Shown piece after piece: positions 1,560-15,977 of a stretch of DNA of 17,345 bases; the stretch's first letter is position 1, and the number at the start of each line of letters is the position of its first letter. Position numbers and translations under genes: made by a program. The stretch covers positions 1 through 17,345 of IMG/VR virus record IMGVR_UViG_2690316028_000014; one strand, 5' to 3'. Source of the DNA: a virus. Lineage: Duplodnaviria; Heunggongvirae; Uroviricota; Caudoviricetes. The notes under the pieces are model-generated. The model had not been told where the DNA came from and did not search any database. It saw only the letters and a list, made by a program, of their open reading frames with translations.

Positions 1560-1900
1560 ACCCCTGCCCTCCCCCAAACCATCAATACTCGCTTCATCGC
1601 CGCGCTGTTGCGGCACTCCTGGCAGATCACGTTTGCCTCTGTACGCTGCACCAGCTTCGAATTTCCCTTCGGCATAGCCGGGATTGTTTCTGGTGCGTAT
1701 TTCATGCCGTAATCGGTCAGCCGATAAAGCCGCTGTCCGTGCTTGCCTTCGAACTCGATCAGGCCGTCTGCCAGCAGCGTGCTTAACGGGCCGGAAATCT
1801 TTTTGGTGGTCATGCCGATCATCCTGGCAATGAAAGCACTATTCAGGCCCGGGTTATTACGCAGGGCTGCAAGAATCTGCCCACGAATTGTTATGGTCAT
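1556..1900 (-). CDS. Putative winged-helix DNA-binding protein (114 aa)
   Basis: Track ORF 1556..1948 trimmed to the ATG at 1898-1900, which overlaps the DnaC-like stop (ATGA) and is preceded by AAGGGGG; N-terminal LNSAFIARMIGMTTKKISGPLSTLLADGLIE resembles wHTH regulators; C-terminal CQEC. Confidence 0.5.
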   Translation of the reverse strand: MTITIRGQILAALRNNPGLNSAFIARMIGMTTKKISGPLSTLLADGLIEFEGKHGQRLYRLTDYGMKYAPETIPAMPKGNSKLVQRTEANVICQECRNSAAMKRVLMVWGRAGV

Positions 1901-2769
1901 GCTGCCCCCTTGGAACGGTAAGAATCCCAGGTGAATGACAGCGTGCACCCGCCGCCGTCGCTCATGCGGTCAATAACACGCTCACTCACGAACGCTGCCA
2001 GTTCTTCTTTGGTCTGGTTGCTGATCAGGATGGTCGGCTTCATACGCTCATAACGGGTGTTGATGATTTCGAACATGATCAGCTTCTCGGCCTCGCTGCC
2101 GAACTGGACGCCAACTTCGTCGATGATCAAAAGGTCCGGAGTGGTGAAGTGCGCAATCACGTCGTTCTCGCAGCGCGTCGCTGTTTTCGACCACGTTGAT
2201 TTGAATTCGCGGGCAATCTTCAGCGCGGTGGTGAAAATTACCGGGCTCTGGTGGTTCTCGATGACATAACGGGCGATCGCCAGGGCGAGGTGGTTTTTAC
2301 CGGTTCCCGGCTTGCCGCACATCACCAGGCCACCACCCTGCTTCAGGCGCTCTGGCCACTTCGCGGCATACGCCTGGCAAACCCGCAGCGCGCGCTCTGA
2401 CTCCTTCCCCACCGGCTGATAGCTTTCCAGCGTGCACGTTACAAAGCGCTCAGGGATTTCGAGCTGGCGCAGCAGGCGATCGATGTTCTGCTGGCGCGTG
2501 CGGTCTTCCCACCGCTTTTTCTCGTCATACAGGAAGGTCAGCTCATCGCGAAGGCAGCCCGGACAACGAGTCGGCGGTGACGGCAGCTTGATCAGGCTGC
2601 TGGTAAGCACGCGTTTACGCTGTTCGTACTCGCCATGTTTCTCGCAAAGCACTGTTTCGAAGACGGTCTCGCAGTTAGGGAGCTGCTCTGGAGGTCTACC
2701 AAGGACTTCCAGCATTTTTTCGATAGCGTCGATTTTTTCGAGCAGTTCCATACTCAGTCCCTCGCCCAA
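1897..2769 (-). CDS. DnaC/IstB-like AAA+ helicase loader (replication protein, lambda P position)
   Basis: Walker A GKPGTGKNHLA and Walker B LLIIDEVG; N-terminal Cys pairs; lies immediately downstream of and overlapping the O-like initiator. Confidence 0.85.
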   Translation of the reverse strand: MGEGLSMELLEKIDAIEKMLEVLGRPPEQLPNCETVFETVLCEKHGEYEQRKRVLTSSLIKLPSPPTRCPGCLRDELTFLYDEKKRWEDRTRQQNIDRLLRQLEIPERFVTCTLESYQPVGKESERALRVCQAYAAKWPERLKQGGGLVMCGKPGTGKNHLALAIARYVIENHQSPVIFTTALKIAREFKSTWSKTATRCENDVIAHFTTPDLLIIDEVGVQFGSEAEKLIMFEIINTRYERMKPTILISNQTKEELAAFVSERVIDRMSDGGGCTLSFTWDSYRSKGAA

Positions 2770-3608
2770 GATGGAATTTCAGTCTGGCCATAGTCCTTGC
2801 CAGCGAAGTTCTCAGATACGCGAGACTGATTGCGGGCTGGCTGCTTGATGCCTTTCGGCTCAAACAATCCCTGCCAGCCGTTCGCAATGCTCTGGTTGAT
2901 GATTTCTTCAGGCTGATATCCGCTGCACTTGCAACGCTCGAGCAGGTTGATGGCCTGGGTAACCGTCTGCTGAGACTTGATCGGTTTCTTCAGGTCGCGA
3001 CGATAATCGACCCATGACTTCCAGACTGAAACTGACAGCCATTCAGGAAGCTCAACACCGGCCGGATCGAACGAAGCCGGTTTGGGGGATTTAGGGGGTT
3101 TATTAATATTGTCTTTATTGTCTTTTGTATGTTTGTCTTTTGTGTTTACCTGATTTGGGTAAGTGTCGTTACCTGATTCGGGTAAACATTTCTTACCTGA
3201 TACGGGTAAATTTACCTCTTTCAGGTAAACTTTGTTTTCGTTACCTGATTTGGGTAATTTCACCCATTCGCTGACCGATTTGTTAATGCCCACAGTTCGC
3301 CCGATTTGGGTAAACACCCCGCGCCTGACTAACGCACTTTTAGCCGCAGAGCATTTGTGTGGGAGGATTCCGGTCAGGGCAGATAACTGATCATTGCTTA
3401 CCCAGTCCGCCTTTTTGTTGAAACCGTATGTTTTGCGCATTACTGCCATGAAGACCAGCAGCTGATGCTGAGACAATCCAGCCAGCATGACAGCCTCCAG
3501 AAGTTCATTGGCGATGCGCGTATAGCCATCATCAAGATCTGCCACGCGCGGCTCCTTAGGTGCCACGTCAGGCACAGGGAAATTGATTACTTCGGCAGTG
3601 TTTGCCAT
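2754..3608 (-). CDS. O: Replication initiator, lambda O-like
   Basis: N-terminal region (ANELLEAV...LSQHQLLVFMAVMRKTYGFNKKADWVSNDQLSALTGI...KCSAAKSALVRRGV) matches the lambda O N-terminal domain family; iteron array and AT-rich tract lie inside the gene as in lambda; RBS GGAG before the ATG at 3606-3608. Confidence 0.85.
   Translation of the reverse strand: MANTAEVINFPVPDVAPKEPRVADLDDGYTRIANELLEAVMLAGLSQHQLLVFMAVMRKTYGFNKKADWVSNDQLSALTGILPHKCSAAKSALVRRGVFTQIGRTVGINKSVSEWVKLPKSGNENKVYLKEVNLPVSGKKCLPESGNDTYPNQVNTKDKHTKDNKDNINKPPKSPKPASFDPAGVELPEWLSVSVWKSWVDYRRDLKKPIKSQQTVTQAINLLERCKCSGYQPEEIINQSIANGWQGLFEPKGIKQPARNQSRVSENFAGKDYGQTEIPSWARD
3146..3313. repeat. Replication origin iterons (ori-lambda-like) inside the O-like gene, with adjacent AT-rich tract at about 3100-3145
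   Basis: Five to six copies of an internally palindromic 17-mer TTACCTGATNNGGGTAA at 3146-3162, 3169-3185, 3193-3209, 3212-3228 (degenerate), 3241-3257 and a partial copy at about 3299-3313; flanked by ttattaatattgtctttattgtcttttgtatgtttgtctttt. Confidence 0.7.
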
Positions 3609-3611
3609 AAT
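3583..3611 (+). promoter_or_regulatory. Candidate sigma70 promoter antisense to the O start (possible OOP-like antisense RNA promoter)
   Basis: TTGATT (3583-3588), 17-bp spacer, CATAAT (3606-3611) on the plus strand, reading into the cII-O intergenic hairpin at 3645-3677. Confidence 0.3.
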
Positions 3612-3690
3612 TGCTCCTGTGAATTGATCCAGTTAATTCCATCTGAAAGCCGTTGGTGTTACAGCACCGCGGCTTTCGCCCATTCTGCGT

Positions 3691-3912
3691 TCATGCTTCA
3701 AAATCTCCCTTCGCTCCATCCCGGTTAGAAATCAGGATGGCCAGCAGCAGCGACATGTTCGGTACCAGGCTCTCCTGCCAGCGGCTTACGGTTGATTTAT
3801 TTCTGCCAGCAACTTCAGCTATACGTGATATCCCCAGATCAGATATCTGGCTGCGTAACCAACTCTCTATCCTCCTAGCCTCCAATTTGTTGCGTGCGGT
3901 TGATGTCTCCAT
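3691..3912 (-). CDS. cII: CII-like transcriptional activator
   Basis: 73 aa; RIESWLRSQISDLGISRIAEVAGRNKSTVSRWQESLVPNMSLLLAIL parallels the lambda CII HTH core as recalled; RBS AGAGGAAG; located downstream of cro. Confidence 0.75.
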   Translation of the reverse strand: METSTARNKLEARRIESWLRSQISDLGISRIAEVAGRNKSTVSRWQESLVPNMSLLLAILISNRDGAKGDFEA

Positions 3913-3950
3913 TTGCGATACTTCCTCTGATTTAATTGGTTATGCCGCCA

Positions 3951-4184
3951 TTAGGCGGCGTTGTTGTCGATCGGTGATGGGAACAGCGTCGGTAAGTCAG
4001 GGCGAATCTGGTAGGCCTGAATTTCACCACCAGTTGCTTTCACGATGCTGTTCACATGCTCCGGAGAAACCTTTGCTTTGTTGTGTAGCCACTTGTAAAC
4101 CGCCTGCTGCGATACTGCGCATGCTTCACCAAGGGCTTTTTGAGACCCGACGATGGTAATGGCGGTTTTAATGGTTGGATTCAT
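3951..4184 (-). CDS. cro: Cro-like HTH repressor
   Basis: 77 aa HTH protein (QKALGEACAVSQQAVYKWL) transcribed divergently from cI across an operator-rich intergenic region; RBS GGAGG. Confidence 0.7.
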   Translation of the reverse strand: MNPTIKTAITIVGSQKALGEACAVSQQAVYKWLHNKAKVSPEHVNSIVKATGGEIQAYQIRPDLPTLFPSPIDNNAA

Positions 4185-4288: not shown

Positions 4289-5014
4289 ATGAAAACGACA
4301 CTCGCTGAAAGACTGAAGGAAGCCAGGACATTACGAGGCCTTACACAAAAGGCTCTCGGGGATCTGGTTGGGGTAAGCCAAGCTGCTATCCAGAAGATAG
4401 AAACGGGAAAAGCTAACCAGACAACAAAGTTGGTAGAGCTGGCAAATGCTTTGATGGTTAAACCTGAATGGCTAAGTTCAGGTGTTGGCCCCATGCGATC
4501 AGACGCTAAAGAATCAAATATTGGTCCTGAATCAGAGTGGGGAACTGTCGACGCATGGGACAAAAACACCCCGCTTCCTGCTGACGAGGTTGAAGTGCCT
4601 TTTCTTAAGGATATTGAATTTGCTTGTGGCGATGGACGCGTTCAATGCGAGGATCACAATGGCTTTAAGCTCAGGTTCTCAAAGGCAACCCTCCGACGCG
4701 TTGGAGCTAATACAGATGGGTCTGGCATCCTGTGCTTCCCTGCTACTGGCGACAGTATGGAACCCGTAATACCGGATGGTACGACTGTAGCCGTCGATAC
4801 GAACAACAAACGCATAGTTGATGGGAAACTGTATGCCATTGGTCAGACAGATGGCGGGAATGGTCAACTCAAGCGCATTAAACAGCTGTATCGTAAGCCA
4901 GGCGGAAAGCTAATTATCCGCAGCTACAACAATGAGGCCTACCCTGATGAAGAAGCTGACATTGATGATGTTGAGATAATCGGCCGCCTCTTCTGGTACT
5001 CGGTATTGCTGTAG
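4289..5014 (+). CDS. cI: CI-type prophage repressor (HTH_XRE N-domain plus S24 LexA-like peptidase C-domain)
   Basis: N-terminal HTH (LTQKALGDLVGVSQAAIQKIETGK); C-terminal GDSMEP with Ser156 and Lys195/198 at lambda-CI-like spacing; candidate Cys113-Gly114 autocleavage site. Confidence 0.9.
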   Translation: MKTTLAERLKEARTLRGLTQKALGDLVGVSQAAIQKIETGKANQTTKLVELANALMVKPEWLSSGVGPMRSDAKESNIGPESEWGTVDAWDKNTPLPADEVEVPFLKDIEFACGDGRVQCEDHNGFKLRFSKATLRRVGANTDGSGILCFPATGDSMEPVIPDGTTVAVDTNNKRIVDGKLYAIGQTDGGNGQLKRIKQLYRKPGGKLIIRSYNNEAYPDEEADIDDVEIIGRLFWYSVLL

Positions 5015-15901: not shown

Positions 15902-15977
15902 TGGTGCCGATAAGAGGAGTCGAACCTCCGACCTTCGCATTACGAATGCGCTGCTCTACCAACTGAGCTATATCGGC
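15902..15977 (-). tRNA. thrW: tRNA-Thr (anticodon CGU)
   Basis: Reverse complement reads GCCGATATAGCTCAGTTGGTAGAGCAGCGCATTCGTAATGCGAAGGTCGGAGGTTCGACTCCTCTTATCGGCACCA: 7-bp acceptor stem, D-loop AGCTCAGTTGGTAGAGC, anticodon loop TTCGTAA, T-arm GGTTCGA, encoded CCA. Confidence 0.9.

Follow-up and report, generated by a model that had tools for sequence, protein, structure and literature searches.

The question raised by this locus is whether the short gap between cII and O of a lambdoid prophage encodes an antisense RNA of the OOP type, and what such an RNA would act on. The window, which is the entire 17,345-nt stretch of DNA that was analyzed, supplies the numbering for every coordinate given below. 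Gene order was confirmed as cI-cro-cII-O-DnaC-like, a lambdoid immunity and replication region running from right to left, and each of these genes was intact. The candidate cassette is placed in the 82-nt gap between cII and O and in the initial codons of O. The nearest relatives among all the loci retrieved were prophages of Enterobacter sichuanensis and E. asburiae and one IMG/VR contig, with 91-95% identity over 1.2-1.3 kb. We consider it very likely that positions 3583-3690 on the plus strand are the pO-oop cassette of this prophage and a homolog of lambda pO-oop, with the mechanism read by analogy with lambda. The oop of the window is a known kind of gene, ordinary in lambda-like phages, in a widespread but undescribed form that is wholly intergenic. 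The features of the region are collected in Table 1.

Table 1. Genes and sequence features around the cII-O gap, in window coordinates
Feature	Position	Strand	Basis or remark
cI	4289-5014	+	HTH plus Peptidase_S24
cro	3951-4184	-	YdaS/Cro-like
cII (73 aa)	3691-3912, stop codon 3691-3693	-	Pfam Phage_CII, E = 2e-10
Degenerate U tract GCCCAUUCUGCGU	3678-3690	+	Weakest of 107 unique family tails
Terminator hairpin, with a bulged U between a 9-bp lower stem and an upper stem of 4-5 bp	3645-3677	+	Fold and covariation
5' stem-loop, GAAUUGAU/GUUAAUUC stem with G.U pair, 3-nt loop CCA	3619-3640	+	Fold; this leader type varies too little for covariation
Predicted OOP-like RNA, about 65-72 nt	3619-3690	+	5' end G3619 by homology to lambda +1
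LexA-box-like 20-mer TCCTGTGAATTGATCCAGTT (CTG-N10-CAG), spanning the predicted start	3615-3634		PWM
O Shine-Dalgarno sequence AGGAG	3614-3618	-	Read from sequence
Extended -10 TG-C-CATAAT (hexamer 3606-3611, TG 3603-3604)	3603-3611	+	Read from sequence
-35 hexamer TTGATT, inside O codons 7-9	3583-3588	+	Aligns with lambda TTGAGT
O, replication gene, with the promoter within its first codons	2754-3608	-	Pfam Phage_rep_O, E = 3e-33
DnaC/IstB-like loader	1897-2769	-	Gene calls/Pfam

The original prediction described a plus-strand promoter, TTGATT-17-CATAAT, over the O start codon and pointing antisense into the cII-O gap. Both hexamers and the 17-nt spacer were found at 3583-3611 as described, together with a TG extension of the -10 element, as in an extended -10 sigma-70 promoter. 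O and cII, identified by Pfam, lie on the minus strand, opposite to the promoter. The O start codon, read on the opposite strand, forms the CAT of the -10 hexamer (3606-3608), and the predicted 5' end of the antisense RNA lies 1 nt past the O Shine-Dalgarno sequence. The predicted RNA fills the interval from there to the cII stop codon, antisense to the stretch of the pR operon that joins cII and O.

Comparison with known phages supported both the promoter and the start site. From the TG extension through CCAGT, which takes in the first 15 transcribed bases, the window reads TTTGCCATAATTGCTCCTGTGAATTGATCCAGT and was identical at 27 of 33 positions to lambda (TTTGTCATAATGACTCCTGTTGATAGATCCAGT) and at 30 of 33 positions to both HK97 (TTTGTCATAATTACTCCTGTGGATTGATCCAGT) and P22 (TTTGGCATAATTACTCCTGTGGATTGATCCAGT), the P22 locus having been located by BLAST. 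Over 58 nt, the identity to lambda was 74.6%. A distant BLAST search with 3575-3700 recovered the same segment in 933W, many Stx phages, BP-4795, and HK97. Lambda oop starts eight bases past CATAAT, at a G (lambda coordinate 38675) for which the window equivalent is G3619. The oop of P22 is a 63-nt RNA-seq species that begins GAUUGAUCCAGU, with G3621 as its window equivalent (PMC13397905). Lambda OOP (pO-tO; 77 nt) and the window share a promoter whose CATAAT and TG extension are identical and which is built over the start of O, a homologous initial transcribed sequence (CTCCTGT..GATCCAGT), a start site 11 nt from the O AUG, a two-hairpin RNA antisense to the cII-O mRNA (predicted in the case of the window), and, at the same place, a candidate LexA-like box. 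They differ in the terminator, which in lambda (CGGUUGCCGCCGGGCG-U6) lies inside the cII reading frame, so that OOP overlaps cII by 52 nt (PMC5869508), whereas that of the window is intergenic and unrelated in sequence; the predicted RNA is also about 5-10 nt shorter than lambda OOP. The central claim of the original prediction, a lambda OOP-like antisense RNA gene, was thereby upheld: homology covers the promoter and some 20 initial transcribed bases, position and orientation are the same, and the hairpin of the relatives behaves as a plus-strand RNA terminator. A reader working from the sequence only had correctly recognized a classic phage regulatory RNA.

Terminator classes were obtained from an IMG/VR scan for the shared leader CTCCTGTGRATTGATCCAGT, after which the downstream sequence was read. 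Class (i), that of lambda and HK97, has a long leader and the terminator inside cII described above. Class (ii), that of P22 and BTP1, has the form AGGCCUCRAA..UUYGRGGCU-U5 and overlaps the last ~42 nt of c1. Class (iii), to which the window belongs, is of the GAAAGCCG..CGGCUUUC type. OOP cassettes thus combine one shared promoter and 5' end with at least three terminator modules. Class (iii) was also found behind a second leader, GCAAUUAC-N5-GUUUUUGCA, the form present in Gifsy-1 and Gifsy-2. Exact class (iii) stems occurred in at least 120 IMG/VR contigs and in 57 stretches of species-representative genomes, all from Enterobacteriaceae (Enterobacter, Klebsiella, Leclercia, Kluyvera, Citrobacter, Raoultella, and others) except two contigs of ~500 bp, which look like contamination. 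The hairpin was also present in Gifsy-1/2, SEN34, and SPN3UB, and these copies, like those of Klebsiella and Enterobacter prophages and that of the window, have identical stems, varying loops, and an intergenic position. SEN34 and the Klebsiella phage ST11-VIM1phi8.2 share the leader of the window. Gifsy-1/2 and many others differ from it in having the GCAAUUAC..GUUUUUGCA leader, no LexA-like box by PWM, and a proper T run, GCCTTTTTR.

Position relative to cII was also consistent across this class. The gap between the hairpin and the nearest minus-strand ORF (≥55 aa) was 6-33 nt in 178 of 190 distinct contexts. In the window, 13 nt separate the hairpin from the cII stop codon and the tail reaches 3690, in agreement with the earlier claim that hairpin and tail stop just before the cII stop at 3691, and the predicted RNA stays clear of the cII reading frame. 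The class (iii) cassette is therefore maintained without overlap of the cII reading frame, which agrees with the report that the lambda hybrid is cleaved outside cII and with the suggestion that pO helps to control replication.

Promoter-like matches as such occurred at chance frequency, with 2 found against 2.6 expected per 2.5 kb. The observation stands above chance because the cassette is conserved and covarying in relatives, and not because of the single sequence. The class (iii) promoter survey comprised 175 copies with 70 unique promoter sequences, and the genes downstream encoded O-like proteins, ClpX-zinc-finger-like small proteins, 13-aa mini-ORFs, and others. CATAAT or CATACT lay over the start codon in 158 of the 175 copies, and the distance from this hexamer to the hairpin was 31-33 nt in 159. 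The TG extension one base upstream of the hexamer was present in 124 copies; it dictates that the second codon be NCA, and the proteins do begin MS, MA, MT, or MP. Of the 70 unique promoters, 48 had a -35 hexamer with 4/6 or more matches at a spacing of 16-18 nt; shifted control positions within these coding regions gave a mean best match of 2.4. BLAST clustering sorted the flanks into unrelated groups, 12 next to the replication genes and 7 next to cII, which occurred in 31 combinations, and BLAST matches stopped at the cassette edges. These combinations and breaks mark the cassette as a conserved module at a mosaic junction. As judged from the aligned copies, the promoter is under selection, its elements being kept before 12 unrelated groups of downstream genes.

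The hairpin, which the original prediction had described as a very stable nested structure about 30 nt past the promoter, was likewise present. It reads GAAAGCCGUUGGUG-UUACAG-CACCGCGGCUUUC and begins ~26 nt downstream of the predicted start. Its folding energy was -20.2 kcal/mol on the plus strand (z = -5.8) and -16.4 kcal/mol on the minus strand (z = -4.3), and the full predicted RNA folded into two hairpins at -26.1 kcal/mol (z = -4.8, 0 of 200 shuffles). Covariation was assessed in copies found via the leader (alignment A1, 38 distinct hairpins); the stems were not pre-selected, since these copies were anchored on the leader and not on the hairpin. In this set, 99.6% of the cells were paired, and double changes occurred at 6 of the 13 pairs. 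None of 500 shuffles equaled any of the five covariation measures, and slid registers paired at 38-53%. Compensatory changes included GGUG/CACC to AGUG/CACU, GCUG/CAGC, and UCUG/CAGA in one stem segment and GAAAGCCG/CGGCUUUC to GAAGACUG/CAGUCUUC in another, while the loops varied freely (UUCGAG, ACCCCU, UUCGCG, UUACAG, and others). One-sided changes were nearly all to G.U on the plus strand, such that the same columns were 99.6% paired on the plus strand vs. 91.1% on the minus strand. Specifically, the constant U9.G25 is a wobble pair on the plus strand and an A.C mismatch on the minus strand. From this pattern of substitutions, the hairpin is evolving under a plus-strand RNA pairing constraint. 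The strand-specific wobbles, together with the T run on the plus strand, show that the main constraint is neither a palindrome at the DNA level nor an element of the sense strand. For the 5' hairpin of the GCAAUUAC leader type, covariation was not significant (79.7% paired, with 58-186 of 500 shuffles as good). A coding explanation for the cassette was rejected: the plus-strand ORFs at 3465-3728 and 3653-4159 had zero Pfam matches, and the stem covariation was not codon-like.

Downstream of the hairpin, the family typically carries a T run on the plus strand, GCC(A)TTTTTG. The native tail has the form GCCCATTCTG, compared to GCCCTTTCTG in relatives and GCCTTTTTG in the family consensus. The longest T run in the tail of the window was 2, its T-tract score fell in the lowest 1-2 percentile of 107 distinct tails, and it differed from the GCCCTTTCTGCG of the closest relatives by one T-to-A change. 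The "modest U-containing tract" of the original prediction is present at 3678-3690; it is U-poor, a degraded form of the family tail. A terminator scan of the window did not call the hairpin at 3645-3677 because its T run fails the rule of the scan, and the same scan gave no further plus-strand terminator-like site up to position 5000. Given the weak U tract, termination may be leaky. The composition of the tail probably lowers termination efficiency, and some transcripts may run on; on such read-through transcripts, cII and cro would be represented in antisense and cI in sense orientation.

The region around the predicted start was also scored with a LexA position weight matrix, which was trained on E. 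coli LexA sites. The 20-mer at 3615-3634 was the best match of the whole window at 13.7 bits, with the next at 6.2 bits. The best match in lambda between 38300 and 38800 was the homologous 20-mer at the same position (15.8 bits), and PMC5869508, in citing Lewis et al. 1994, refers to a LexA-binding sequence within lambda oop-pO. We rate the box as a lead, since shuffled windows reach 10.7 ± 3.3 bits and the match by itself is not significant against them. The promoter may be one that is held down by LexA in the lysogen.

Several explanations other than a promoter-driven antisense RNA were weighed against these results. [quoted passage not shown] The minus strand does fold, as noted, and the hairpin follows the cII stop by 13-16 nt, as a 3' stabilizer typically does. 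We nevertheless hold this to be very improbable, since the wobbles fit the plus strand only, the T run is on the plus strand, and the promoter is conserved across unrelated genes. After the hairpin, the minus strand reads AGAUGGAAUUAAC, with no T run comparable to that of the plus strand. A sense-strand terminator between cII and O was rejected on the same wobble asymmetry and because the T run is on the wrong side. Decay of the window copy into a functionless remnant, whose RNA is badly terminated or not made, would account for a tail that is the weakest of 107 and that carries an extra T-to-A relative to the closest relatives. This, too, seems improbable: the window has an intact promoter, LexA-like box, and leader, each of the 13 hairpin pairs is kept, and the neighboring cI, cro, cII, O, and DnaC-like genes are intact as well. 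The closest relatives have a similarly weak tail, which suggests that this sub-lineage tolerates it. The least credible proposal, and one we regard as extremely unlikely, is that the conserved ~110 bp are a recombination "linker", functionless in itself, which repeated exchange of modules among mosaic phages has kept. The exact mosaic junction, the 31 combinations of unrelated flanks, and the break of BLAST matches at the cassette edges are what such a linker would give, but compensatory stem changes with free loops, strand-specific wobbles, and kept promoter hexamers would be unexpected for it.

On the preferred reading, that of an OOP homolog, RNA polymerase would start at approximately G3619 and produce a two-hairpin RNA of roughly 65-72 nt. 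This RNA would pair with the cII-O intergenic stretch of the pR transcript, as its lambda counterpart does, and the duplex would be cut by RNase III, again as in lambda. The cut, which would adjoin the O ribosome-binding site, would expose the cII message to 3' decay. Firing of the convergent promoter would also dampen pR transcription into O and ori, and the net outcome would be less CII, a bias toward lytic growth, and a tuning of replication. Pairing of lambda OOP with the cII-O mRNA and the RNase III-dependent hydrolysis that follows are attributed to Krinke and Wulff (1987, 1990) where these are cited in PMC7067206, PMC5869508, and PMC2327240. In the lambda OOP:cII mRNA hybrid, RNase III and other cuts fall outside cII, and secondary decay is needed to inactivate the message (PMC5869508), which is compatible with a wholly intergenic RNA. 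As the predicted RNA does not overlap the cII reading frame, it could influence cII only indirectly. Its 5' end abuts the O Shine-Dalgarno sequence, which makes an effect on O translation plausible. In lambda, OOP contributed little, if anything, to the clearance of CII that follows SOS induction (PMC2327240), so the physiological weight of OOP may be small.

A related possibility, which overlaps with this explanation, is that the main role belongs to the convergent promoter: firing of pO would interfere with pR transcription into O and ori and so tune replication, with the RNA largely a by-product. In lambda, pO activity lowers pR-driven transcription, and loss of pO impairs replication (PMC3985674). 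In addition, class (iii) never overlaps cII, with the hairpin 6-33 nt from the stop in the contexts counted above, and the cassette travels with the start of whichever replication-side gene follows. A precise, covarying hairpin 26 nt from the start implies selection on a defined short RNA, or at least on early termination; this counts against the RNA as a by-product, though it does not separate the two roles. We regard the convergent promoter as the main role as possible, if somewhat unlikely. Less likely still, in our assessment, is that the GAAAGCCG-type cassette is a portable, self-contained antisense module that targets the initiation region of O or the downstream gene together with pR transcription, and that controls replication rather than CII. 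The crippled U tract would then give leftward read-through, possibly LexA-controlled, antisense to cII and cro and sense to cI.

The RNAs that have been seen experimentally in this family, namely lambda OOP (PMC5869508), P22 oop, and BTP1 OOP (PMC7067206), belong to classes (i) and (ii), and nothing specific was found in the literature on Gifsy and oop. BTP1 OOP was considered as a transcript of class (iii) and rejected, because the published BTP1 OOP is of the P22 class. The Gifsy-1 sRNA names STnc1160, STnc2080, and STnc1380 could not be tied to the oop locus. An Rfam search of 3583-3690 returned nothing at gathering score (the best weak match was symR, at 16 bits and E = 1.3). The oop genes of lambda and P22, used as controls, likewise matched nothing, and the null result is uninformative because no Rfam model detects either of them. 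The class (iii) element was annotated in none of the records examined.

The P22/BTP1 oop (63 nt; RNA-seq, dRNA-seq) resembles the window in being a short RNA with a two-tier terminator consisting of a 9-bp stem, a bulge, a 5-bp stem, and a tetraloop, and the upper stem-loops are similar (YUGUU-NNN-GCAR). Unlike the window, P22 has a terminator that overlaps c1, with a good U run and another lower-stem sequence, and its next gene is orf48 and not O. In the GenBank record of P22-pbi, the corresponding promoter and terminator are annotated "by homology with lambda". For the annotation of enterobacterial prophages, the class (iii) copies provide a signature: a start codon overlain by TG-N-CATAMT and then, after about 32 nt, GAAAGCCG..CGGCTTTC followed by a T run.

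Two features are common to the OOP terminators of the P22 class (L128, 323–356) and those of the class to which the window belongs (window 3655–3668). Both carry the upper stem-loop pattern YUGUU-NNN-GCAR, and both fold into the same two-tier shape. This resemblance suggests that the two classes descend from one ancestor or that the apical part serves the same function in both. On a single IMG/VR contig (L215), the pO/oop leader was found twice, at 4078–4097 and 4305–4324 (227 bp apart), with a P22-class terminator after each copy, as if the OOP cassette had been duplicated in tandem. Two very small contigs from assemblies of non-enterobacteria, L316 (Kocuria sabuli, 517 bp) and L338 (Massilia sp., 497 bp), also carry the enterobacterial OOP terminator hairpin and are most likely contamination.

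In Klebsiella phage ST846-OXA48phi9.2 (locus L001), the minus strand of 2264–2466 encoded a protein of ~62 amino acids (MSGTKTEVNAQATHKCSFCGAS..ICQKCV) with likeness to the ClpX N-terminal zinc finger, and the OOP promoter hexamer CATACT coincided exactly with the start of this protein. The sister record MK448237 carries a "ClpX superfamily protein" annotation at the corresponding place. The ORF annotated in MK416022 was probably assigned to the wrong strand. In L023 and similar IMG/VR loci, the ORF that begins at the start codon within the pO −10 hexamer, upstream of the hairpin, is only 13 amino acids long (MTNACTKHQAKGA*), and its stop overlaps the start of the next gene (TAGCATG). This leader ORF takes the slot held by gp53 in HK97 and orf48 in P22.

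Annotated and predicted features
Feature	Location	Strand	Details
Annotated ORF	L001 locus 2309–2464, within 2264–2466	+	Klebsiella phage ST846-OXA48phi9.2, MK416022
Perfect 6-bp hairpin, GCCGCC-AUUA-GGCGGC	window 3929–3952		between cro and cII
tRNA gene	window 15905–15977	−	Rfam tRNA, 71 bits

OOP element annotation was absent from all of the Gifsy, Klebsiella and SEN34 records examined, and oop, pO and tO are likewise missing from the features listed for 38300–38800 in the RefSeq lambda record examined (NC_001416). Elsewhere in the window, the perfect hairpin occupies the nutR boxB/tR1 position and is followed 3′ on the plus strand by GTTGTTGTCG. The tRNA gene possibly marks the prophage attachment site.
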